In this document: one piece after another, positions 1 to 12,424 of the stretch
How positions within the stretch are numbered: position 1 is the first letter of the stretch
How the letters are laid out: the number at the start of each line of letters is the position of its first letter
From: Actinomycetota bacterium
GTDB lineage: Bacteria; Actinomycetota; Actinomycetes; Actinomycetales; Microbacteriaceae
Assembly: GCA_040390225.1 (NCBI GenBank)
Contig: JAZJYU010000061.1
Location: 4,104 to 47,439 of the forward strand
DNA length: 43,336 nucleotides
Direction: 5' to 3'
Position numbers and translations under genes: made by a program
The notes under the pieces: model-generated
The model's database searches: none
What the model was told of the DNA's origin: nothing
The model's input: only the letters and a program-made list of their open reading frames with translations

Positions 1-712
1 GGCACGACGATGCCGCCGATGGAGACCTTGCCTGTGATCTGGCCGGTGGCGGTGTCGGGGCGACCGGGCCGCCGGGTATGGATGCCGCGCTGCCGGCGAT
101 GCTGTGCACCGTCTGGAACCCGTTGAAGTTCTGGATCACACCTCCGGCGATCAGGATGATCGCGGCGATGATCGACATCGGCAGGAGCAGGCGCAGCGCC
201 GAGCGGGTGATATCGACCCAGAAGTTACCGACCGTGCCCGTCTTGCGATAGGCGAGGCCGCGAACGAGCGCGATCGCGACCGCGATGCCGACGGCGACGG
301 AGAGGAAGTTCTGCACCACCAGTCCGCCGAGTTGCACCGCATAGCCCATGGTCACGTCGGGCGAGTACGACTGCCAGTTCGTGTTGGTGATGAAGGACGC
401 AGCGGTGTTGAACGAGAGACCTTCCGGTATCGCCGGGAACCCGAGGGCGTACGGCAGCACTGCCTGCAGGCGCTGAATCGCGTAGAGCAGGAGCACGCCC
501 ACCATCGAGAAGATCAGCACGCTGCGCAAGTACAGGCGCCAGGTCTGCTCCGAGCTCGAATCGACGCCGATGACGCGATAGAAGCCGCGCTCGACCTTGA
601 GGTCTTTCGACGGCGAGAACATGTGTGCCATGTAGTCGCCGAGCGGACGGTACACGACCGCGAGGAGTACGAAGAGGGTCAGGATCTGCAGGATCCCGAA
701 AAGTACGGTCAT
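1..712 (-). CDS. kdpA: Potassium-transporting ATPase subunit A, 5' part; homology holds from 712 down to ~59
   Basis: Manual translation from ATG 712: MTVLFGILQILTLFVLLAVVYRPLGDYM...EQTWRLYLRSVL...SFNTAASFITNTNWQSYS...QNFLSVAVGIAVAIALVRG...GNFWVD...GGVIQNF...IPGGPVA, all KdpA hallmarks. ATG overlaps the kdpF stop (TGATG). Absent from the ORF track because it runs off the window. Confidence 0.95.
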   Translation of the reverse strand, partial: MTVLFGILQILTLFVLLAVVYRPLGDYMAHMFSPSKDLKVERGFYRVIGVDSSSEQTWRLYLRSVLIFSMVGVLLLYAIQRLQAVLPYALGFPAIPEGLSFNTAASFITNTNWQSYSPDVTMGYAVQLGGLVVQNFLSVAVGIAVAIALVRGLAYRKTGTVGNFWVDITRSALRLLLPMSIIAAIILIAGGVIQNFNGFQTVHSIAGSAASIPGGPVAPTPPPARSQARSPSAASSC

Positions 713-801
713 CAGAATCGCTCCGGTTTCAGAAGGGCGATTACGAGGTAGACGAGCGCGGCAACGGCCAGGACCGCAGCGACGATGGTGAAGACGATCA
801 C
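712..801 (-). CDS. kdpF: K+-transporting ATPase subunit F (29 aa)
   Basis: GTG start, MIVFTIVAAVLAVAALVYLVIALLKPERF; YL..AL..PE.F KdpF motif directly upstream of kdpA. Confidence 0.93.
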   Translation of the reverse strand: MIVFTIVAAVLAVAALVYLVIALLKPERF

Positions 802-881
802 AGTTTCTCTACCCCCCAGGCGACGACGCCGATCACCGCGAACACGGCGATGACGACGAGGACATACACAACGTCGAGCAC
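798..881 (-). CDS. 27-aa single-TM peptide upstream of kdpF
   Basis: GGAG RBS then GTG: MLDVVYVLVVIAVFAVIGVVAWGVEKL; stop overlaps the kdpF start (GTGA). Confidence 0.8.
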   Translation of the reverse strand: MLDVVYVLVVIAVFAVIGVVAWGVEKL

Positions 882-984
882 AGGTAGCTCCATTCAGATG
901 TTGATCGCGGGACTCCCGATCGAGCCCGATGCCGTGAGGCACAGCAGATGAGTAGACACCCTCCGCCCTGTCGGCTCCGGGCTA

Positions 985-1033
985 CTCACGAAATCCTTAC
1001 GCCGGAAAGCGAAACCCTAACGGCATGCTTACG
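985..1033 (-). promoter_or_regulatory. Phased direct-repeat array upstream of the kdp operon (putative KdpE site)
   Basis: + strand CTCACG 985, CTTACG 996, CTAACG 1017, CTTACG 1028; spacing 11/21/11, typical of OmpR-family tandem binding. Confidence 0.7.
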
Positions 1034-1094
1034 TCGCCTTCCGCCGCCATCAGGGTCACCCGTCATGGTCCCCGGCTGAACGAGTGGAACTGTC

Positions 1095-1697
1095 CTAATC
1101 CCGCCTCGACGAAGCCCTGAGACCCGCCGTCAACTCCTCGGCCAACTCGCCGCGAAGGGGTTCGAGCGCGCGGTAGAGCGCAGCGCAGTCGAGGTCGTAT
1201 TCCGCGTCGGCGAGCGCTCCGAATGCGAGCCGACGATCGATGCGCGCGAGCACAGCGAGGGCAGAGTGCATGGCATCGACGTTTCCGAAGGCCCGTTCCT
1301 GCCCACCGGCGTGCACGGTCAGCACGGCAATTCTGAGCGACGCCGCTCGCTCCCTGCGAGTCGATGCGGCGCCGATCAACGCCCCGAGACCATACACGGC
1401 GACCCCGATGTAGCACGCTGCGGCCAGCGAGACGAAAAAGCTCAGCGCCACCAGCGTGGCCAGGGCGAACCCGATCCCCACGACGGGCCAATACCGATAT
1501 GCGATGAGCGCGCGTCTCTTGCTCGCATCCGTACCGGGCGGGAAGAGGATGAGGCTCTGGTAGATGTTCGACGAAGAGCCGATGGCGACCGTCTGCGAGT
1601 AGCCCCAGCGGTGCTTTCCCTCGAGCCGGCCGATCGCGCGCATCAGCGCACGCTCGAGCGCTGCGAACCTGGGCAGCGTGATCGCCGAATCAGCCAT
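1095..1697 (-). CDS. Two-TM membrane protein, DUF6611-like
   Basis: 200 aa; HRWG...LILFPPGT...RR.L..YR.WP followed by two hydrophobic helices; family recalled, not searched. Confidence 0.65.
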   Translation of the reverse strand: MADSAITLPRFAALERALMRAIGRLEGKHRWGYSQTVAIGSSSNIYQSLILFPPGTDASKRRALIAYRYWPVVGIGFALATLVALSFFVSLAAACYIGVAVYGLGALIGAASTRRERAASLRIAVLTVHAGGQERAFGNVDAMHSALAVLARIDRRLAFGALADAEYDLDCAALYRALEPLRGELAEELTAGLRASSRRD

Positions 1698-1737
1698 GCA
1701 CCCGGTCTACGCCCGCAACCGCGCCTCTCGGCCGGGA

Positions 1738-1787
1738 CTAACGCATTGCACGCGGCGGGAGCGCCGAAACCTAACGTTTCGCACACA
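1738..1787 (-). promoter_or_regulatory. Phased repeat array (putative KdpE-type site)
   Basis: CTAACG 1738, CACGCG 1749, CTAACG 1771, CACACA 1782 (11/22/11); first repeat 41 nt from ATG 1697. Confidence 0.5.
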
Positions 1788-1795
1788 CTCCGGCG

Positions 1796-2314
1796 CTATG
1801 ACGCGCCGGAGATGCGAATGTCGTGAAGCACGGTGATCCCGACGCAGGGGAACAGGATCAGGTCGCCGACGGCGATGTCGGCGGGAAGGTTCCGCACGAC
1901 ATAGCTCAGCGCGTCGGGCAGCGGTCCGCCGACGAGCATTTCGAAGCGAGAGCACTCCGAAGCGCGCCCTATCAACCGAGCCTCGGTGAAGATCGGGCGA
2001 CACCCGCCAAGCTCCGCATCGATCGTCACGTGGACGGCCCCCTCCGTGCTCAGCGTCACCGCCAGAACGCGCGTGACGATCAGTGAGCCGACTCGCCAGT
2101 CACCGAGCGGCTGTGGCGGAACGGGCGCGGGGTCGCAGTTGTGAACACAGGGCGTGCCGGCCCAGTCGACCAGGCACCGCATCGAGATTCCCGCGACGAC
2201 GACATCCGAATCGTTCGTGCTGACATGAGGGGGCCATGGCGCCCCGAGGCCGTCGGGGGGATCGTCGTGCGGGCGGGAGGCTGACTCAGTGCGATGCACG
2301 GTGGTGGTTGACAT
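1796..2314 (-). CDS. LysA (DAP decarboxylase)-derived short protein lacking the PLP barrel, paralogue 1
   Basis: 172 aa; WPPH...DVVVAGISM..LVDWAGTPC (LysA N-terminal like) joined to VTIDA...ARLIGRAS...LPADIAVGDLILFP (LysA C-terminal beta-domain like). Confidence 0.7.
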   Translation of the reverse strand: MSTTTVHRTESASRPHDDPPDGLGAPWPPHVSTNDSDVVVAGISMRCLVDWAGTPCVHNCDPAPVPPQPLGDWRVGSLIVTRVLAVTLSTEGAVHVTIDAELGGCRPIFTEARLIGRASECSRFEMLVGGPLPDALSYVVRNLPADIAVGDLILFPCVGITVLHDIRISGAS

Positions 2315-2354
2315 GCCATCGGTCTACGCGATCGCAGCCTGCTCGCCGGCCGGT

Positions 2355-2467
2355 CTAACGAAGCCCACACGGTTTCGTACCGATTCCGAACGGTTTCCGT
2401 GCGCGACGGAGGTCGCAGTGCGAGCACTTCGTGAAGATTTGCCGCAATCGTGTAGGGATTCCGTCAG
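2355..2467. promoter_or_regulatory. Two back-to-back phased repeat arrays in the divergent promoter
   Basis: Leftward: CTAACG 2355, CACACG 2366, CGAACG 2387, CGTGCG 2398. Rightward: TGCGAG 2419, CGTGAA 2430, TGTAGG 2451, CGTCAG 2462. Both 11/21/11. Confidence 0.55.
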
Positions 2468-2539
2468 AATCGGACCGTCACGTCGCGATGAGACCCACAC
2501 TCGAGCAATGCGTGTCTCCCTCGGTCGATCGCGGCGGCG

Positions 2540-3061
2540 ATGACCCTCACCACGATTCTTCCTTCGCTGCGGCGAAGCATTCCGGATCCACTGGATCCGG
2601 ACCAATGGCCCGAGGGCACGGTCGCGACGACGACCGACCTCATCGTCGCCGGCCTCTCCCTTACTCATGTCGCCGAAGTGAGCGGTACGCCCTGCTCTGT
2701 CTCGGGCTGCTCCGTTGCTCCCGGAACTCATGGGCGCCCTTCGACGACGCACCACACCTCGGTCACCCTCGTGACGGTGACCTCCTGTGACGTCGGCCCG
2801 GCAGGCGAGCTCAGCATCGGGGTCGACGGCGGACCGGACTGTGCCACGCAGATCTGGCCCGCGGCCCGGCTGGTCGGGCGCGCCTCGGTGTGCCATGTGC
2901 GGCCGGTGGCGTTCGGTCTACCGGCGGGCCCTGGCCGGGTGGGCCTCACAGTCCTGCTTCCCGGAGACATCCGGGTGGGCGACCTGCTCGCCATCCCCTC
3001 CCGGCCGATCCGCGTCGCGGCGACGGGTGATGGCCCTGGATGGCTGGAAGACCTGGAGTAG
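2540..3061 (+). CDS. LysA-derived short protein lacking the PLP barrel, paralogue 2
   Basis: 173 aa; MTLTTILPSLRRSIPDPLDPDQWP...DLIVAGLSLTHVAEVSGTPC...GVDGG...ARLVGRAS...LPGDIRVGDLLAIP. Confidence 0.75.
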   Translation: MTLTTILPSLRRSIPDPLDPDQWPEGTVATTTDLIVAGLSLTHVAEVSGTPCSVSGCSVAPGTHGRPSTTHHTSVTLVTVTSCDVGPAGELSIGVDGGPDCATQIWPAARLVGRASVCHVRPVAFGLPAGPGRVGLTVLLPGDIRVGDLLAIPSRPIRVAATGDGPGWLEDLE

Positions 3062-3078
3062 CGAAGAACCGCTCAGCG

Positions 3079-4131
3079 CTACAGCCACTTCCTTCTCCGG
3101 AAGAGCACGAACAGCGCAACGGCTGTGCCTGCCATGACGGCAAGCGCGAGTGGGTAGCCGAACGCCCAGTGCGTCTCCGGCATGACATCGAAATTCATCC
3201 CGTAGATCGTGCCGATAATGGTCGGCGGAAACATGATGGCCGCCCAGGCCGAGATCTTCTTCAGCCCCTCGTTCTGCGCGATATTCACTTCTGTGAGCCG
3301 TTTCGTCTCTTCATTCTGCGCGAGGCTCGCCTCGGACAGCACGCGCATCGCGTCGTTCTGACGCTGGGTCACCGCTGTCGCGTGGATCTCCAGCGCGCTC
3401 TGCGTCACGGTGCGAAGCGAGTCGGCGCGGCTGCTCACCCGCGAGATGCGATCACGCAGGGCGTCCAGGTCTGCGCGGAGCGGAACTGCGACGTGATACT
3501 TCTCTGCTCCGCGGCGCAGGCGGTCGAGCATGTCGTTGAGGGGATGCACCGCGCGCTGGAACGAGACGACCGTGTTCATCGCGCGGAAGATCTCCCGGAC
3601 GAGGGCTGGATCGTCGTCGAACAGGCGATCCTCCAACTCGTCGACGGCGATCTCGAGCCGGGTGATCGCGGGCCGATAATCCCGCACGACGGCGTCGAGG
3701 ATCGCATAGAGGATGGCCTCGGGCCCCAGAGACAATCGGTCAGGCGAAGATTCGAGCCGGGACCTCAGCTCCCCCAGTTCGGGAGAACTGCTCTTGCGAA
3801 CGCTCAGCAGAAAACCCTGTCCGACGACGATGTCAAGCTCACCGAACTCGACCTCGCCGCTCTCGCTCGACAGCACCGCCGTTCGCACCACGACGAACAA
3901 ATTCGTTCCGGAGCGTTCCAGCCGTGAGCGACGGTGGTCAACCATCACCTCGTCGCGAATCGACGGATGGACTGCGAATCGCTCCGCGACCTCGAGGAAC
4001 TCTGCGGCGGTTGGCTTGTACAGGCCCGTCCATGTGACGATCTTCTCCCGGAGCGCAGGAAGGCTGGGCAGCGGGGCCTGCGGCGCGGAACGACGGCCTG
4101 CGACGTAGGTCGCGGTGTCCACGAGGGGCAT
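3079..4131 (-). CDS. corA: CorA-family Mg2+/Co2+ transporter
   Basis: 350 aa; C-terminal PPTIIGTIYGMNFDVMPETHWAFGY with GMN signature and two TM helices; AGGAGG RBS. Confidence 0.93.
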   Translation of the reverse strand: MPLVDTATYVAGRRSAPQAPLPSLPALREKIVTWTGLYKPTAAEFLEVAERFAVHPSIRDEVMVDHRRSRLERSGTNLFVVVRTAVLSSESGEVEFGELDIVVGQGFLLSVRKSSSPELGELRSRLESSPDRLSLGPEAILYAILDAVVRDYRPAITRLEIAVDELEDRLFDDDPALVREIFRAMNTVVSFQRAVHPLNDMLDRLRRGAEKYHVAVPLRADLDALRDRISRVSSRADSLRTVTQSALEIHATAVTQRQNDAMRVLSEASLAQNEETKRLTEVNIAQNEGLKKISAWAAIMFPPTIIGTIYGMNFDVMPETHWAFGYPLALAVMAGTAVALFVLFRRRKWL

Positions 4132-4179
4132 GGGGTTCCTCCTGCATCGCGCTAGCCGGTCTGGGCGGCACAGCTCACG

Positions 4180-4228
4180 CTAACGCGACCCCAGAACCCG
4201 AACCGCTGTCCTTTACGGATCCAATACG
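4180..4228 (-). promoter_or_regulatory. Partial phased repeat array upstream of corA
   Basis: CTAACG 4180, TTTACG 4212, AATACG 4223 (32/11 spacing; second position degenerate). Confidence 0.45.
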
Positions 4229-4384
4229 GAATTCACGGCTTGGCCAGGTGAGAGCTGATCGCTCGCTTCCCGAGTCGACCGCTGAGCCGAAGCCCTACCG
4301 ACAGTGGCCACAGCGTTCTGACGAATGACTCCGTTCTGCGGAGCAGGCCTTCTCTTTCACGGCTTTTCGCCCGAGGATCGGGGC

Positions 4385-4918
4385 ATGCGAAAAGTCGTCG
4401 TCTACGAACTGATGTCCCTCGATGGAGTCGCCGAGGATCCGGACGGTTTCATCGCCGAGTGGGACGACGTGATGGATCACAACCTGGCTGATGTGATCGG
4501 GCGGCAGGACGCCGTCATCCTGGGTCGTCGCAGTTACGACGAGTGGTCCCGGTTCTGGCCGAGCAGCGACATCCAGCCGTTCGCGCGGTTCATCAATACG
4601 ACCGCGAAGTATGTTGCGACATCCACACCTCTCGGCACGACGTGGCAGAACGCGATCGCGATCGATGGCGGACTCGTCGATTTCGTGGGCGCCCTGAAAG
4701 CCCGGCCAGGCGGAGACATCGGGGTGCACGCGAGCATCTCGGTCGCCCGCACGCTGCTGACGGCCGGCCTGGTCGACGAACTCAGGCTTGTGGTCGCGCC
4801 GGCGATCATCGGAACCGGGAGCCGTCTTCTGGATGGAGTGCCCGCCATGAACTTCGAGCTCGCAGGCAGTGCGATCTCCCCGACCGGCTGCCTGCTGCTG
4901 GACTACCGCGCTAGATGA
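4385..4918 (+). CDS. Dihydrofolate reductase family / RibD C-terminal domain protein
   Basis: MRKVVVYELMSLDG...ILGRRSY...GLVDELRLVVAPAIIGTGSRL; start reassigned to ATG 4385. Confidence 0.88.
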   Translation: MRKVVVYELMSLDGVAEDPDGFIAEWDDVMDHNLADVIGRQDAVILGRRSYDEWSRFWPSSDIQPFARFINTTAKYVATSTPLGTTWQNAIAIDGGLVDFVGALKARPGGDIGVHASISVARTLLTAGLVDELRLVVAPAIIGTGSRLLDGVPAMNFELAGSAISPTGCLLLDYRAR

Positions 4919-4933
4919 GCACGGCTGAGCCGA

Positions 4934-4975
4934 GTGACTTTGGTCCCGATGAACCAGTGGCACATGAGTCAAACT
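4934..4975 (+). promoter_or_regulatory. DosR-type box with -10 element
   Basis: GTGACTTTGGTCCC 4934-4947; CAAACT 22 nt downstream. Confidence 0.6.
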
Positions 4976-5126
4976 CTTGTTTATCGGAGGGAATCGGATG
5001 CGCGATACGGGGGTATTCCGCGCAACACACAAGTGGGGACCGGGTCGGGGGTGACTCGGTCTCCACCGTGCCGGATCGAATCCGAAGGACACCGTTGAAC
5101 CTGGTCGGGATGGCCCCTGGATAGAC

Positions 5127-5140
5127 GGGACCAAGGTCCT
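5127..5140. promoter_or_regulatory. DosR-type box
   Basis: GGGACCAAGGTCCT palindrome; -10 candidates on both sides (GAGGCT on + at 5163, CAGGTT on - at 5103-5098). Confidence 0.65.
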
Positions 5141-5282
5141 TATGATCCACTGGCACATAGACGAGGCTCTGCTGCATCGGATCATGTCCGAGTGCGAGAT
5201 ATGGGGGTATCCCGCACTGCATACGCATGGAGGCCGGGTCTCGGGTGACCTGGCCTCCATTTCGTTTCGCCTCTGGCCTTGC

Positions 5283-5324
5283 GGGACCTTCGGCCCAATC
5301 CGCGCAGCGCACAGCGCCCACACT
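5283..5324 (+). promoter_or_regulatory. DosR-type box with -10, leaderless ADH promoter
   Basis: GGGACCTTCGGCCC 5283-5296; CACACT 5319-5324; ATG 6 nt later. Confidence 0.75.
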
Positions 5325-5330
5325 GGGCCC

Positions 5331-6365
5331 ATGAGAGCACTTCAGTATCGTCAGGTAGGTTCCGCCCCCGAGGTCGTCGAGATCGACACCCCGGAACCCG
5401 GCCCGGGCCAGGTGCGGCTGAAGGTCACCGCCGCGGGCCTCTGTCATTCCGACTCGTTCATCATGGGGCTGCCCGCCGAGCAGTACATCTACGGACTTCC
5501 GCTGACTCTCGGCCACGAAGGCGCAGGCATCGTCGACAAGCTCGGCGACGGAGTCACCGGAGTGGCCGTGGGCGACGCCGTCGCGGTCTATGGACCGTGG
5601 GGATGCGGTCGTTGCCACGCCTGCTCGGAGGGCCGCGAGAACTACTGCACCAACGCAGCCGCTCTCGGCATCGTGCCACCCGGACTCGGTGCGCCGGGCG
5701 CGATGGCCGACTACCTGATCGTCGACGACCCGCGACACCTCGTGCCGCTTGGCGACCTCGACCCCGTCGAAACCGTCTCCCTGACAGACGCCGGCCTCAC
5801 GCCCTACCACGCGATCAAGTCCAGCCTCGCGCATCTCTACCCGGGGTCGACGGCCGTCGTGATCGGCTCGGGCGGGCTCGGCCATGTCGCCATCCAGATC
5901 CTGAAAGCGATCAGCTCCGCCACCGTGATCGTCATCGACGTCGACGAGAAGAAGCTGGCTCTGGCGAAGCAGGTGGGCGCCGACCAGACGATCGTCTCCG
6001 GTCCGGATGCCGCCGCCGCGATCCGAACCGCAACCGGCGGCATCGGAGCACAGGCCGTGTTCGACTTCGTCGGAGCGCAGCCCACCCTTGACATCGCCCG
6101 GGAATCCGTAGCCGTCGACGGCATCATCCAGGTCGTCGGAATCGGCGGCGGAATCCTGCCGACCGGCTTCTTCTCGACCCCCTTCGGGGCTGCGGTGCAG
6201 GCACCGTACTGGGGTTCGCGCTCCGAGTTGATCGAGGTGCTCGACCTCGCCCGGCGCGGTCTGGTGAAAGTGCACGTCGAGCGATTCACACTCGACCAGG
6301 CTCCCGAGGCGTATGACCGGCTGCACGCGGGTACGATCTCCGGTCGCGCCGTCGTCGTGCCGTGA
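5331..6365 (+). CDS. Zn-dependent NAD(P) alcohol dehydrogenase (Rhodococcus ADH-A / phenylacetaldehyde reductase type)
   Basis: MRALQY...GLCHSD...GHEGAG...CGRCHAC..G.ENYC...GSGGLG...PYWGSRSEL; start reassigned to 5331. Confidence 0.92.
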   Translation: MRALQYRQVGSAPEVVEIDTPEPGPGQVRLKVTAAGLCHSDSFIMGLPAEQYIYGLPLTLGHEGAGIVDKLGDGVTGVAVGDAVAVYGPWGCGRCHACSEGRENYCTNAAALGIVPPGLGAPGAMADYLIVDDPRHLVPLGDLDPVETVSLTDAGLTPYHAIKSSLAHLYPGSTAVVIGSGGLGHVAIQILKAISSATVIVIDVDEKKLALAKQVGADQTIVSGPDAAAAIRTATGGIGAQAVFDFVGAQPTLDIARESVAVDGIIQVVGIGGGILPTGFFSTPFGAAVQAPYWGSRSELIEVLDLARRGLVKVHVERFTLDQAPEAYDRLHAGTISGRAVVVP

Positions 6366-6766: not shown

Positions 6767-7824
6767 TGCCCGCGAAGCACCCGCGACCGCGGTTCCCGAC
6801 CTGGGCGCGGGTGCTGCTCTCGACGGTCGCCCTGGGGCTGGCGGTATGGTTCGTCATCCTGCCGCAGTTCGCCGACGCGGCCGCCACTCTGCACACGCTC
6901 GAGCGCATCTCGATCCCGCTCCTGGTACTCGCGGTGGTCTGCGAGCTCGGATCACTCCTCTCGTACACGGCGCTCACCCGCACGGTGTTCGGCAAGACCC
7001 ACCCGCCCTTCTTCACACTTTTCAGGCTCGACCTCGTAGACCTCGGCATCAACCACGTCGTACCCGGAGGCGCACCCATCGCCATGGGAGTGCGCGTGAG
7101 TCTGTTCCGGTCGGTGGGCGTTCGGGGAGCGGTGGGGATGTCGGTCACGACGATCGAGATCGTCGTCGCCAACCTCATGCTCGGCGCGTTGCTCGGTCTC
7201 GGCGTCGCGCTGTCACTCGGCGTGCTCACCGGATCGGTGTGGCTCCTTGTCGCCGCGGCCGTTGTGATCGGGCTGGTGATCGCCACGATCCTTGCCACCT
7301 GGAGGCTGGTCTTTCACACCGAGAGTTCCGTTCGTGCCGTGCTGTCGGTCGTGTCGCACGTGCGTTTCATCAGTACTGAGAGCGTTGAGATGTTCCTGCG
7401 AACGATGGCACGGCAGTTGCATGGGCTGCTCACCCGGCGATCCAAGCGCGTGAGGGCGATCATCTTCTCCGCGCTCAACTGGATCCTCGACGCCGCGGTG
7501 CTATGGATCATGCTGAGCGCCTTCGGCACCCCACCGCCGATCGGCGGTGTGATCACGGTGTACGCCGCCGGCGTTCTCGTCTCCATGCTGCCGATCACTC
7601 CGGGTGGACTCGGTGTGGTCGAGGGCTTCATGGTTCCCGCGCTGGTCCTGCTGGGAACCGTCCACTCGACCGCTCTCATCGCGGTGCTCGCATGGCGCCT
7701 GCTCGAATACTGGCTGCCCCTTCCGCTCGCGGGACTCTCGTGGATCTCGCTCCTGGTCGACAGACGCCGGGACCAAAGGCCCGTCGCGAGCGCGGCACCT
7801 GCTCCAGCATCGAGCCATGGATAA
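6766..7824 (+). CDS. Lysylphosphatidylglycerol synthase TM-domain (YbhN/UPF0104 flippase-like) protein
   Basis: Multi-TM; INHVVPGG and LPITPGGLGVVEG...AVLAWRLLEYWLP motifs; ATG 6766 overlaps the upstream TGA. Confidence 0.85.
   Translation: MPAKHPRPRFPTWARVLLSTVALGLAVWFVILPQFADAAATLHTLERISIPLLVLAVVCELGSLLSYTALTRTVFGKTHPPFFTLFRLDLVDLGINHVVPGGAPIAMGVRVSLFRSVGVRGAVGMSVTTIEIVVANLMLGALLGLGVALSLGVLTGSVWLLVAAAVVIGLVIATILATWRLVFHTESSVRAVLSVVSHVRFISTESVEMFLRTMARQLHGLLTRRSKRVRAIIFSALNWILDAAVLWIMLSAFGTPPPIGGVITVYAAGVLVSMLPITPGGLGVVEGFMVPALVLLGTVHSTALIAVLAWRLLEYWLPLPLAGLSWISLLVDRRRDQRPVASAAPAPASSHG
7769..7810 (+). promoter_or_regulatory. DosR-type box with -10 inside the 3' end of the upstream gene, leaderless arc promoter
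   Basis: GGGACCAAAGGCCC 7769-7782; CAGCAT 7805-7810; ATG 7817. Confidence 0.65.
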
Positions 7825-9205
7825 GACCACAGACATCGCCCCTCGCAAGAAGGCGACGCCCGGCAGGCTCGGCCTGCCCACCGCATCCGCGCTCGTCATC
7901 GGATCGGTCATCGGTACCGGAGTGTTCGGTATCCCGTCCGCCCTCGCCATGTTCGGCCCCATCAGCCTCGTCGCCTTCGTGCTGGTCACTATCGGAGCAC
8001 TGGCGCTCGCGATCGTGTTCGGCTGGCTGGCCCAGCGCATCCCCGGATCCGGTGGCCCGTACCTCTACGCACGGGATGCGTTCGGGGACTTCGCCGGCTT
8101 CCTCAACAGCTGGTCGTACTGGGTGACGGCCTGGGCGGGCAATGCGGCGATCGTCGTCGCGCTCACCGGCTACGTGGAAGTGTTCGTGAATAAGGACCAC
8201 AACATCTGGTGGTCGATCGTGATCGCCGTGATCGGACTGTGGATCCCGGTGCTGATCAACGTCGTCGGCATCCGCACCCTCGGTGCGGCTCAGGCGATCT
8301 TCACGGTGCTGAAGGTCATCCCGCTCGTGCTCATCGCCGTCGTCGGGTTGTTCTTCATCAATCCGGCCAACTTCGGTGCGTTCAATTCGTCGGGCACCAA
8401 CGCCTGGAGCGCCATCGCCGGTGCGGGCGCGATCGTTCTGTTCGCCTACCTGGGCATCGAGACCGCGTCCGTGGCCGCCGGCCGCGTGCGCAATCCGGAG
8501 AAGAACGTGCGCAGGGCGACCGTCTGGGGCACCGTGATCTGTGGTGTCATCTACGTTCTCGGCACTCTGGCCGTGTTCGGCACAGTGAGCAACAAGGCGC
8601 TTCGCACCTCGACGGCGCCGTTCAGCGATGCCGCCAACGCGATCTTCGGAGGCACCTGGGGAGGCGACCTCATCGCGATCGCCGCCATCGTCTCCGGACT
8701 CGGCTGCCTCGTCGGCTGGACCTTCATCGTGGGCGAGATGCCGTTCGCGGCCGCGAAGGATGGGATGTTCCCGAAGGTCTTCGCTCGTGAGACCCGTGGC
8801 CTGCCGATCGTCGGCATCCTCGCGTCGACCATCTTCGCCACCCTGCTCACCGTGCTCGCGTACACGAACTTCTCGAACGTGTTCACGACGGTGCTGCTGC
8901 TGACCGTGTTCACCTCGGTGATCCCGTACATGTTCTCGGCGGGTGCGCAGGTGTTCTGGCTGGTCACCCATCGCCGCACCATGGCATGGGGGCCGTTCGC
9001 GAAGGACCTGTCCATCTCCATCGTCGCTCTCGCGTTCACGTTCTGGGCTCTCGCGGGCAGCGGCGCGCAGGCCTGCTATTACGGCGTGTTCTGCTTCCTG
9101 CTCGGTGTGCCGCTCTACATCTGGTTGCGCGCGTCGAAGAAGAAGGACCCGCTGGACGAACCGGCCGCCACTGCTCCGGCGCCGGAACTGGAAAGGGCAT
9201 CATGA
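7817..9205 (+). CDS. APC-family amino acid permease, probable arginine/ornithine antiporter (ArcD/PotE-like)
   Basis: [26 protein letters not shown] motifs; about 12 TM; first gene of the arc operon. Confidence 0.88.
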
Positions 9206-10476
9206 CCACCGCCACTGCCTCGGCCGGTCCACTGGACGAACCGACCGCCGCGGCCGATCTCGGGGTTCACTCCGAGGTCGGGCGCCTGCGCAAGGTGATC
9301 GTGCATCGGCCGGGACTCGAGCTCGCGCGGTTGACACCGCAGAACCGCGAGGAACTGCTCTTCGATGACGTTCTCTGGCCATCGAAGGCACGCTCCGAGC
9401 ACGACGGCTTCGCCGATGCGATGGAGTCTCGCGGAATCGAGGTGTTCCACTTCGACACGCTTCTCTCCGAGACACTGGAGCAGGCCCCGGCCCGTGACTT
9501 CGTGCTCGACCGGCTCTGCACGACCGACGTGTTCGGGCCGTCTTTCGCACCGTACCTGCGTCACGCTCTCGCTGAGCAGGAGTCGGCGCGTCTCGCCGAG
9601 TTGCTGATCGGCGGCATTCTGCCATCGGATATCGCAACACCGGCGAGCGCGAGCCTCTTCGCGGATGCGCTTGGGCCGGACGGATTCCTCGTTCCGCCCG
9701 TGCCGAATTCACTCTTCCCTCGCGACAGTTCGGCCTGGATCTACGGCGGTGTCAACGTCAACGTCATGGCCAAGCCGGCGCGGGCACGCGAGACCGACCA
9801 TGTGCGGGCGATCTACCGGTTCCACCCGATGTTCGCGGACGCTCAGTTCGCGCAGTTCAACACGGACGAGACACGGCGTCGCTCCACGATCGAGGGCGGC
9901 GATGTGCACGTGCTCGGTCATGGGGCAGTGCTGGTCGGGATGGGCGAACGCACCACTCCGATGGCGGTCGAACTGCTCGCCAAGGAATTGTTCGCCACCG
10001 GTTGGGCCACGTCGGTGATCGCCATCGCGCTGCCGAAATCGCACTCGATGATGCACCTCGATACCCTCATGACCATGGTCGATCACCGCACTTTCGTGCT
10101 GTACCCGAACGTGGCGCCGAAATCGTTGCACGCGTGGAGGATCACGCCGTCGGGTGACAGCGATCGGCCGTTACGGGTCGATGCCGAACGGCCCCTGATG
10201 GCTCTGATCGGTGAAGCGCTCGACCGGTCGGACATCCGTGTGCTGTCCGCCGACGAGGACAGCCGGGCCGCCGAGCGCGAACAGTGGGATGACGCAAACA
10301 ACTACCTGGCACTCGAGCCTGGCGTCGTCGTCGGCTACGACCGCAACGTCACGACGAACACGATGCTGCGCAGAAACGGCATCGAGGTGATCACCGTTCC
10401 CGGCAGCGAGCTCGGACGCGGTCGCGGTGGCTCACGCTGCATGTCCTGCCCCATCCTGCGCGACCCGGCGGAGTGA
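9202..10476 (+). CDS. arcA: Arginine deiminase
   Basis: [54 protein letters not shown] (catalytic Cys). Confidence 0.97.
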
Positions 10477-11513
10477 TCGATATGACCTTGCTCACCGAAC
10501 CGGCGACCGGCATCCGGCACCTGCTGCGCGACACCGACCTCACGAAGGCCGAATATCTGCGCCTGCTCGACGACGCCGCGGCTCTCAAGCGGGAGCGCGC
10601 AACGGGGACCATCAGTCCCCGGCTCACGGGACGCGATGTCGCGGTCATCTTCGAGAAGCCCTCCACCCGCACGCGGAGCGCCTTCGAGGTCGCGCTGCAC
10701 GACGAAGGCGCCGGCTGCACCTACATGGATTCGGCGAGCAGCCACCTCGGCACGGCGGAGTCCTTCGAGGACACCGCCAAGGTTCTGAGCCGCTTCTACG
10801 ACGGCATCGCCTATCGCGGGTTCGCGCAGTCCGCCGTCGAGGAGCTCGCGCAGCACGCGTCGATTCCGGTCTGGAACGCGCTCACCGACGAATGGCATCC
10901 CACCCAGGCGCTCGCCGACATGCTCACGATGCGTGAGACGGCAGGCAAGCGGCTCGAAGACGTGGTCGTGTGCTTCACGGGCGACGGCCGCAACAATGTC
11001 GCCCGCAGCCTCATGACCTCGGCGGCGATCCTGGGCATGGACATGCGGATCGCAGCACCTGCCGCGCTCCAACCGCCGCCGTCGGTGATGACCTACGTGC
11101 GGGCGATCGCAACGCACTCCGGCGGCTCGATACTCATCACCGACGACGTCGAAGCGGCCGTGCCTCGCGCGGACTTCATTTATACGGATGTCTGGGTGAG
11201 CATGGGCGAGTCAGACGAGCTGTGGGACGAGCGGGTGCCGCTGCTGAAGCCGTACCGCGTCGACTCCGAGTTGATGGCGCTGACCGGGAACCACCAGGTG
11301 AAGTTCCTGCACTGCCTGCCTAGCATCCATGACCGAACCACCGAACTCGGCGCGAAGGTCTTCGAGCGCTACGGCCTGGAGGGCGCCGAGGTGAGCAACG
11401 AGGTCTTCACCTCGAACGCGTCGAGGGTCTTCGAGCAGGCGGAGAATCGCATGCACACAATCAAAGCCGTCATGCTCGCATCACTGAATTCCACCGACTC
11501 CGCGGAGAGCTAG
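10473..11513 (+). CDS. arcB: Ornithine carbamoyltransferase (catabolic context)
   Basis: [44 protein letters not shown]; start may be ATG 10482. Confidence 0.95.
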
Positions 11514-12424
11514 TGCGCATCGTGATCGCTCTCGGGGGCAATGCGCTGCTCAAGCGCGGCGAACGACCGGATGCCTCCATCCAGCTCGCCCACCTCGACT
11601 CGGTCGCGCCGGCGATCGCCCGGCTGGCTGCGGACCACGACGTCATCATCGTGCACGGGAATGGGCCACAGGTCGGGTTGCTCGCGAACGAGAGCGCGGC
11701 CGATCCGGCCCTGAGATCGCCGTATCCACTGGCGGACCTGGTCGCCGAGACGCAGGGCCTGATCGGCTCGTGGATCCAGCGCTCGCTCACGCATGCCGGG
11801 TTGACCAGGGACGTCATCGTGCTCGTCTCGAGAACCCTGGTGAACCACGACGACCCCGCCTTCCACAGGCCGGCGAAGTTCATCGGCCCGATGCTCGACG
11901 CCGACCAGGCGAGACGGGCGAGGGCGCAGGGACGCACGATCGCAATGGACGGCGAATCGTGGCGACAGGTCGTTCCCTCCCCAACGCCCGTGAGAGTGCT
12001 CGAAACCGCACGAGCGTCGCAACTGCTCGACGCCGGCTGCACCGTCGTGCTCGCCGGCGGCGGCGGAATCCCCGTCGACCAGCACGGTGACGCGATCGAC
12101 GCCGTGGTCGACAAGGATCTGACCGCAGCCAGGATCGCCGTCGATCTCGAAGCGGAGCTGCTTGTGATCCTCACCGACGTGGACGGCGTGATGCGCGACT
12201 TCGGCACGTCAGGGCAGACGTTGATCCGCGCAACCACGTCCAAGGAGCTCTCCTCTCAGCAGTTCGCCGACGGGTCCATGGGTCCCAAGGTTCGTGCGGT
12301 CAGCCAGTTCACTTCGGCCACGGGCCGCCGGTCGGCAATCGGCCGACTCGATGAGCTCACCGGAATCATCGTGGGGACCGCGGGCACCCAGGTGCACGCT
12401 GAAGCCGTGACGGCGGCGACATGA
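11513..12424 (+). CDS. arcC: Carbamate kinase
   Basis: IVIALGGNAL, HGNGPQVG, KFIGP, GGGGIPV, AVVDKD, GSMGPKV. Confidence 0.95.
   Translation: MRIVIALGGNALLKRGERPDASIQLAHLDSVAPAIARLAADHDVIIVHGNGPQVGLLANESAADPALRSPYPLADLVAETQGLIGSWIQRSLTHAGLTRDVIVLVSRTLVNHDDPAFHRPAKFIGPMLDADQARRARAQGRTIAMDGESWRQVVPSPTPVRVLETARASQLLDAGCTVVLAGGGGIPVDQHGDAIDAVVDKDLTAARIAVDLEAELLVILTDVDGVMRDFGTSGQTLIRATTSKELSSQQFADGSMGPKVRAVSQFTSATGRRSAIGRLDELTGIIVGTAGTQVHAEAVTAAT

Follow-up and report, generated by a model that had tools for sequence, protein, structure and literature searches.

A likely KdpE regulon beyond kdpFABC, marked by four-site repeat arrays, in Microbacteriaceae

The kdp locus and its repeat arrays

The DNA considered here, called the window in what follows, is a stretch of 43,336 nucleotides from an actinobacterium of the family Microbacteriaceae (assembly GCA_040390225.1, contig JAZJYU010000061.1, positions 4,104 to 47,439), part of contig C61 in a genome of 2.98 Mb and 66% GC. 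Its left end holds the beginning of the genes for the potassium pump KdpFABC, and the subject of this article is a repeated promoter element that lies upstream of kdpF and of several genes beside it. The element consists of direct repeats of 6 bp, 11 bp apart, with two pairs at four promoters of the window and one pair at a fifth, that of a corA-family gene. An initial annotation, made from the sequence alone, had proposed that it marks a KdpE-like regulon. The principal features are these (positions in the window; hexamers are given distal to proximal on each gene's sense strand; ORF, open reading frame):

1..712, minus strand: 5' part of kdpA; the window starts within the gene, and kdpB, kdpC and the start of kdpD lie beyond it
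712..801, minus strand: kdpF (Pfam PF09604, E 3.5e-08)
798..893, minus strand: hydrophobic ORF of 31 aa overlapping the start of kdpF; no match in Pfam or NCBIfam
951..956, minus strand: predicted -10 element of kdp, TCTACT, in the same register as in the other promoters; predicted start near 944
985..1033, minus strand: kdp array, CGTAAG/CGTTAG/CGTAAG/CGTGAG, spacing 11/21/11; the strongest array in the genome
1095..1697, minus strand: DUF6611 gene, 200 aa (PF20315, E 2.5e-24), predicted to be leaderless and array-driven
1704..1709, minus strand: predicted -10 element of the DUF6611 gene, TAGACC
1738..1787, minus strand: DUF6611 array, TGTGTG/CGTTAG/CGCGTG/CGTTAG, spacing 11/22/11
1796..2314, minus strand: barrel-less LysA 1, 172 aa, predicted to be leaderless; profile match to LysA
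2321..2326, minus strand: predicted -10 element of barrel-less LysA 1, TAGACC
2355..2403, minus strand: barrel-less LysA 1 array, CGCACG/CGTTCG/CGTGTG/CGTTAG
2419..2467, plus strand: barrel-less LysA 2 array, TGCGAG/CGTGAA/TGTAGG/CGTCAG, back to back with the preceding array
2496..2501, plus strand: predicted -10 element of barrel-less LysA 2, CACACT
2508..2543, plus strand: leader ORF of 11 codons, its TGA overlapping the real start of barrel-less LysA 2, ATG 2540 (ATGA)
2540..3061, plus strand: barrel-less LysA 2, 173 aa; profile match to LysA and structure model

The four complete arrays lie exactly where the initial annotation had placed them, and the sense-strand hexamers bear out its statement that orientation flips with the direction of the gene. 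In consensus they consist of CGTnAG units joined by GGATTC-like linkers; the units form two pairs, the second of which starts 32-33 bp from the start of the first. Homologous loci with names come from Conyzicola, Agromyces and Arthrobacter.

It was also correct that kdpD and kdpE are absent from the window. On contig C61, kdpA is followed by kdpB, kdpC and, right after kdpC, the first 91 positions of the KdpD profile, while the end of contig C184 carries the remainder of kdpD and then kdpE. The two parts of KdpD are complementary, from which it would follow that the contigs join here. Right behind kdpE on C184 is a second DUF6611 gene (L006, 14100-14785) with a full array of its own, which overlaps the end of kdpE. 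That gene is followed by a kinase-like ORF (L006, 13249-13965).

A strong element with few sites in the genome

The repeated element is real and lies above chance. Against circularity, arrays were scored with matrices trained on other genomes, the loci of the window's own genome being excluded. The first matrix was made from 58 promoters of homologues, with six DUF6611 loci and the downstream genes of tandems left out of training; the second was made from 20 kdp promoters of relatives only, and all 30 DUF6611 loci were scored with it. Rows L199 and L241 (genomes G454 and G622) were dropped, as was L046, which is spurious.

A plain scan for the consensus gives, out of 24, 23 at kdp, 21 at the C184 site, 19 at LysA-like-1, 18 at DUF6611, 17 at corA and 16 at LysA-like-2. 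With the 58-promoter matrix, applied to 5.93 million positions, the top five are kdp (45.6 bits), the DUF6611 paralogue on C184 (35.2), LysA-like-2 (32.5), LysA-like-1 (31.1) and DUF6611 (26.9); all four complete arrays of the window are thus among them, and the best unrelated site in the genome reaches 16.3 bits. The same five lead with the kdp-only matrix, at 24.2-47.2 bits, compared to 13.1 for the best unrelated site. When columns for the -10 element are added to the matrix, the five promoters score 36-50, versus peaks of 15.4-18.8 in three shuffled genomes.

One might suppose that the promoters had been duplicated along with surrounding DNA. That is ruled out. From promoter to promoter, the spacers that separate the motifs agree in only 4-11 of 27 bases and are thus unrelated, so the promoters did not arise by copying of a single segment. 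A repeat finder gave only the common stretch of -10 element and ATG at 1695/2312.

Starts and leader ORFs

In the 58 promoters, a GCGTAGAC-like block is found 26-34 nt 3' of the last unit, and ATG or GTG stands at +41 in 33 of them and at +42 in a further 15. The initial annotation had noted ATGs at 1697, 2314 and 2508 at a distance of 41 nt, and each is indeed the 41st base past the proximal hexamer. The last of the three, however, had to be rejected as the start of the second LysA-like gene, with which it is out of frame. It opens instead the 11-codon leader ORF listed above, an architecture found also in 11 of 12 comparable homologues. Over 33 promoters of barrel-less LysA genes, an in-frame start at +40 to +43 occurs in 16, a leader ORF in 11, a start in another frame in one, and no start codon at this place in five. 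The leader ORFs are 11-48 codons long, their sequences are not conserved, and the stop of each overlaps the start of the gene (ATGA or GTGA).

If +41 is taken as the start site, the half-sites would fall near -89, -78, -57 and -46, with TAGACC, TCTACT and CACACT occupying -12 to -7. A scan for the sigma-70 consensus, uninformative here, returned no sites.

Conservation of the arrays and their tie to kdp

The arrays are conserved over many soil-dwelling relatives, in homologues of kdp, of barrel-less LysA and of DUF6611, as the initial annotation required of them. By the kdp-only model, 33 of 34 regions upstream of barrel-less LysA genes and 24 of 30 upstream of DUF6611 genes exceed the 99th percentile of the background. 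Three of the LysA regions are marginal at 2.1-4.2 bits, one of these being the one below threshold, and five of the six DUF6611 regions that fail are behind a barrel-less LysA gene. By the target-trained model, every kdp promoter from the family (20/20) scores 20-44 bits when its sense strand is read. Over the class as a whole, 15 bits are reached by 16 of the 30 regions upstream of kdp, for the most part with CGTCAA units. Even copies separated from kdpA by 0.2-2.8 Mb of a shared contig retain their arrays, which suggests control in trans.

Among 400 genomes of the family, 212 possess kdpA, 64 a barrel-less LysA and 56 a DUF6611 protein over the cut-off. kdpA is present in 63 of the 64 and in 55 of the 56, a co-occurrence for which I claim no statistical test, because kin genomes are not independent. 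The sole DUF6611 genome without kdp, G120, has neither KdpD nor an array. A strict form of the array pattern occurs in 139 of 212 genomes with kdpA versus 37 of 188 without it; the reversed pattern, used as a control, turned up in about 90 of 400 genomes, counted by eye. Eight pattern hits from genomes without kdpA were rescored: seven loci gave 12.5 bits or less and one, in G148, gave 21.6. The search for KdpD among genomes without kdpA covered five of them.

An alternative view is that a different member of the OmpR family, of the MtrA, RegX3, PhoP or GlnR type, binds the arrays and, incidentally, controls kdp too. Direct repeats of 11 bp are common to the whole family, the accessible account of GlnR describes four head-to-tail sites (PMC10235972), the genome has about ten further OmpR-like genes, and G148 has a fair array with no kdp to go with it. 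A global regulon is nonetheless hard to reconcile with a genome whose strong sites number just five and are confined to the kdp locus (the scan covered the array motif, not those of GlnR, MtrA and PhoP). The pattern falls nearly to the level of its reversed control in genomes without kdpA, where none of the seven other rescored hits exceeds 12.5 bits, and the proven mycobacterial KdpE site, as far as its published description goes, fits the array. I regard this alternative as improbable.

Two further arrays were seen in relatives. In G090, a 44-bit array behind kdpE precedes a gene for an AraC-family regulator (L128, 144-1227), a further candidate target. In G158, one of 41.6 bits lies far from kdpA, before the gene for a 134-aa protein with no match in NCBIfam (L130, 2319-2807).

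KdpE as the probable regulator

From comparison of promoters, I consider it likely that one regulator, most probably KdpE, controls kdpFABC together with the two DUF6611 and the two barrel-less lysA genes. The KdpE-like regulon of the initial annotation is supported for kdp, DUF6611 and both LysA-like genes; the membership of corA, taken up below, is not established.

Sites of known KdpE proteins can be laid upon the array. In Mycobacterium smegmatis, the available text describes a footprint on a single 22-bp site, CGTAAA-N5-CATCAA on the sense strand of kdpF (PMC5401905). A metagenome contig, L178, has exactly this 22-mer, and there it coincides with the model's hexamers 3-4; a second, weaker pair lies 32 bp further upstream (16.2 bits). 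In E. coli, the half-sites reported in the accessible part of the source are TTTATA and TTTACA on the kdpF sense strand (PMC3264566). On the opposite strand they read TGTAAA and TATAAA, resembling the actinobacterial unit, and since it is the reverse complement that does so, the unit faces the opposite way with respect to transcription from its counterpart in E. coli. The recognition helix is conserved in both KdpE proteins of the genome, and KdpE keeps the equivalent of R193; its best NCBIfam match is KdpE, yet under the curated cut-off of that family. Wider sets of genes dependent on kdpDE or K+ are described for M. tuberculosis, in accessible text that does not give binding sites (PMC12210973, PMC6375644), and further ChIP peaks of KdpE, with a different motif, for Caulobacter (10.1101/2023.07.05.547876, in its accessible part).

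There are two KdpE proteins because a second kdpD/kdpE pair, an orphan, is found on contig C64 (L007, 7472-10753). Since its recognition helix is nearly identical to that of the first, the cognate regulator is ambiguous, which counts against naming KdpE of the kdp locus outright. It may be that the arrays are KdpE sites but that the accessory genes are activated mainly by KdpD2/KdpE2, perhaps in response to another signal. There is no scored array close to the orphan pair. Still, the accessory promoters fit a model made from kdp promoters alone, and the DUF6611 paralogue is directly behind kdpE1; kdpD2, for its part, is interrupted by assembly gaps. This seems to me less probable still than a different OmpR-family regulator.

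Other observations also weigh against KdpE as the binder of four-site arrays. Class-wide, 14 of 30 kdp regions remain below 15 bits, and the strict pattern is missed in 73 of 212 genomes with kdpA. The genome counts come from kin. G148, with neither kdpA nor KdpD, carries its 21.6-bit array before the gene for an ABC-transporter ATPase (L131, 146-1195), with the start at +42. In the available text of Ali et al., it is one 22-bp site that was footprinted, not four half-sites, and a SigF promoter that was proposed (PMC5401905). If L178 has the M. smegmatis layout, the mapped start of that report would lie about 37 nt past the footprint, not 41.

LysA proteins without a barrel

A profile of 37 homologues of the two short LysA-like proteins matches LysA (E 2.6e-10) at residues ~7-47 and 316-408 and at nothing between, residues ~48-315 being missing. 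The relationship to LysA that the initial annotation had seen holds for the beta-domain, but the whole barrel that binds pyridoxal phosphate (PLP) is gone. Because of this, the short proteins are not decarboxylases. The PLP lysine and the HCE motif are absent from 37 of 37, and NCBIfam gives no match. What is present, as judged by profile, Foldseek and Atlas, is the beta-sandwich domain of fold type III: the structure model of a short protein (predicted local distance difference test, pLDDT, 87) matches the beta-domain of LysA with E 1.1e-04 in Foldseek and a template-modelling (TM) score of 0.68-0.71 in Atlas. A search of the PDB with the single sequence gave no match; the profile search did find LysA. 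The family is matched by 291 representative clusters, and 148 of the best 150 are of 240 aa or less.

Where might such proteins have come from? Hit 148 of the family search, a protein of 444 aa, lacks the PLP lysine, and a search with it led to a second lysA, intact and from another order (L181), with relatives named as Mycolicibacterium and Mycobacterium proteins. This gene has the same array, with ATG at +41, and encodes a LysA that scores 423 bits against TIGR01048 (cut-off 297.9), PLP lysine and HCE motif included. In a sample of Mycobacteriaceae, the array stands immediately before 9 of 11 second lysA genes (13.4-22.7 bits) and ~500 nt upstream of another; the remaining one has none. Upstream of housekeeping lysA genes there are no arrays, neither in a set of 28 (maximum 1.5 bits) nor in one of 22 (maximum -0.3), one locus being in both.

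The N-terminal motif TL..LPS is found in 6 of 6 second LysA proteins, in 22 of 37 short proteins and in 0 of 49 other LysA proteins. In trees, which involve long branches, the short proteins group with second LysA and degenerate forms (support of 97 by the SH-like approximate likelihood ratio test, SH-aLRT). Most likely, to go by motif, array and tree, the short proteins descend from an intact, array-controlled second lysA that persists in Mycobacteriaceae. In G547, several arrays lie beside kdpA, with a fragmented copy of a second lysA divergent from the pump (L210, 14492-17850).

If second lysA genes respond to K+, one would expect their induction when K+ is short. The induction of MAB_1156c, a second lysA of M. 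abscessus, fits this prediction: its log2 fold change in K+-depleted dormant cells is +6.53 (~90-fold, adjusted P 5e-164), and +1.61 in cells starved in phosphate-buffered saline (PBS), according to the accessible data (PMC12689514). The supplement gives, for the same two conditions, -1.04 and -1.93 for housekeeping MAB_1434, and +3.52 and -2.26 for kdpA (PMC12689514). In the available main text, the terms lysA and diaminopimelate do not lead to MAB_1156c, and a supplement on M. marinum has no lysA entry.

Here, too, there are points on the other side. An approximately unbiased (AU) test does not reject grouping of the short proteins with housekeeping LysA (p 0.22), and a link of MAB_1156c to the array-bearing clade was sought and not found: at two second-lysA loci no mfd neighbour is among the ORFs listed, and a plasmid search found no mycobacterial copy. 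Judging by the accessible data, the K+-depleted cells were 41 days dormant, so that dormancy confounds the comparison, which was made without a kdpE mutant, and fold changes of this size are also seen for at least a dozen other genes.

A more deflating explanation is that the accessory promoters are relics, attached to decaying genes that carry a duplicated kdp promoter and are under no functional selection. The short LysA proteins do lack any catalytic residue and are patchy in distribution (64 of 400 genomes), and one database entry, P0021, looks frameshifted. This entry, a fused double barrel-less protein, might have been read as evidence of a heterodimer, but it looks like a frameshifted tandem and was not used. 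Decay does not, however, explain why the positions of the motifs are conserved where the spacers are not, nor the stable length, invariant residues and confident fold of the family, nor the retention of arrays on copies far from kdp. Of the three alternatives to a KdpE regulon weighed here, this is the least likely.

DUF6611

The modelled DUF6611 protein has a small beta-sheet, a central hydrophobic helical hairpin and C-terminal helices. Foldseek found no match to it, VIA-align at best the helical hairpin only (Z 7.4), and Atlas only other DUF6611 proteins; the literature search on DUF6611 gave no paper. Frequent neighbours of the genes are kdpE or a barrel-less lysA, which they follow, and kdpF, to which they lie opposite. 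As a guess, the protein may serve as a membrane accessory in K+ stress.

The corA gene

The fifth promoter belongs to the following features:

3079..4131, minus strand: corA-family gene, 350 aa (PF01544, E 3.7e-53), with a GMN motif and below the TIGR00383 cut-off; a doubtful member of the regulon
4177..4228, minus strand: partial corA array, with one good pair, 4228-4212, and a possible -10 element TAGCGT, 4182-4177

The initial annotation had called this array partial. One good pair is there, but the register given, 4228-4180, is weak: it reads CGTATT/CGTAAA/TTCTGG/CGTTAG, in effect without a third hexamer, and scores 13.2 bits by a model of the 58-promoter type and 5.1 by the kdp-only model. 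Shifted by 32 nt, the site has one pair plus TAGCGT, with a ribosome-binding site in the leader of 40 nt, and at 17.9 bits it ranks sixth in the genome, just ahead of unrelated sites of 17.6 and 17.4 bits. The 30 closest CorA homologues, from a search of 80 of 99 intended genomes, include two with a strong array and four above background. A single clade of array-bearing CorA proteins was not found; the array-bearing homologues are scattered over the tree, with the window's protein on a long branch. Among the induced RNAs in the accessible data on M. abscessus, that of corA does not figure, orthology to the window's corA not being shown (PMC12689514).

Repeated recruitment of corA genes is plausible, and the window's corA may be a weak recruit of the KdpE regulon, though by its promoter sequence I lean against it. 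Elsewhere, a barrel-less lysA is followed by another corA, and an array of 39 bits belongs to a CorA-like gene.

Other features of the window

Small ORFs like that at 798-893 are also found before kdpF in relatives and in contig L178. Just before the window, a run of N splits kdpA (L001, ~4090-4103); this is an assembly gap, and a real frameshift is not shown. An Rfam scan of 700-5400 found no riboswitch or known RNA. Between a RibD_C gene and an alcohol dehydrogenase gene, at 4936-5260, there are two similar stretches containing hairpins, likewise without a match in Rfam.

At 7604-12424, an amino-acid permease gene is followed by ORFs that I take, from their resemblance, to encode arginine deiminase, ornithine carbamoyltransferase and carbamate kinase; the family scan covered only the permease. 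Upstream of this permease-led run there is no array. ORFs at 13442-40609 may form a hypoxia or fermentation cluster, with resemblances to a DosR-like regulator, cytochrome bd, transhydrogenase, phosphoketolase and acetate kinase.

A proposed model of the regulon

I propose that at low K+, phosphorylated KdpE would bind the four-site array as two dimers, just upstream of the would-be -35 position, and so would switch on kdpFABC, two genes for DUF6611 membrane proteins and two for barrel-less LysA proteins. The transcripts would be mostly leaderless. Where the start of the gene is further on, a short leader ORF would pass the ribosome over by way of the ATGA overlap. An intact second LysA, where there is one, may raise lysine, a cation, during K+ shortage.

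It is a bolder and rather unlikely idea that these are parts of an old potassium-to-lysine circuit of actinobacterial KdpE, which would induce an intact second LysA in mycobacteria and their relatives and, in the window's family, a version of it cut to a barrel-less pseudo-enzyme that might dock on housekeeping LysA or on DUF6611, retuning the flux of lysine and diaminopimelate (DAP) under K+ starvation in the manner of antizyme-inhibitor-type control.

This conserved and probable extension of the KdpE regulon is apparently undescribed. No description of the regulon, the four-site array or the short LysA family was found in a literature search to which subscription papers and supplements were largely inaccessible. 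If the model is right, a single precise promoter for actinobacteria (two repeat pairs, a fixed -10 element and a fixed start) would reconcile the KdpE sites of E. coli and mycobacteria and predict targets from sequence. DUF6611 would gain a physiological condition, and a sizeable family of barrel-less LysA proteins is defined. The retention of a second lysA by many mycobacteria would also have a possible explanation.

Comparison with known systems

Regulator and pump are those of the textbook, and this is not a new kind of system. Like KdpD/KdpE-kdpFABC of E. coli, as the accessible parts of the sources describe it, the locus has 6-bp direct repeats 5 bp apart, in pairs, upstream of kdpF and a KdpE with a conserved recognition helix. 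Unlike it, the actinobacterial regulator would have two pairs and five or more promoters, where KdpE of E. coli has one pair of half-sites and a single target (PMC5934670, PMC3264566).

The site at kdpF of M. smegmatis coincides with the proximal pair of the array. The available text of the report (PMC5401905) treats it as one A-rich site without repeat structure, unlike the site of E. coli, and names no other target. The reading offered here would put a four-site array and a TANNNT-like -10 element in place of the SigF promoter.

In mechanical terms, activation by four protomers of GlnR may be the nearest model, by analogy. In the accessible account, four protomers of this OmpR-family protein stand head to tail on two boxes beside the polymerase (PMC10235972). 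GlnR differs in the sequence of its half-sites, in serving a global nitrogen regulon, and in spacing its sites evenly by six bases, with no gap of 21-22 bp.

The short proteins have the beta-domain fold of diaminopimelate decarboxylase LysA (PDB 1HKV/2O0T, 5X7M) without its PLP barrel, PLP lysine and HCE cysteine. As their sequences stand, they would be unable to bind PLP and would act through contacts with other proteins. A parallel exists in eukaryotes: antizyme inhibitor is a dead homologue of ornithine decarboxylase, a non-catalytic relative of fold type III used for regulation. The parallel is an analogy only. Both are relatives of a decarboxylase without catalysis; antizyme inhibitor retains the barrel, and the short LysA proteins have dispensed with it.

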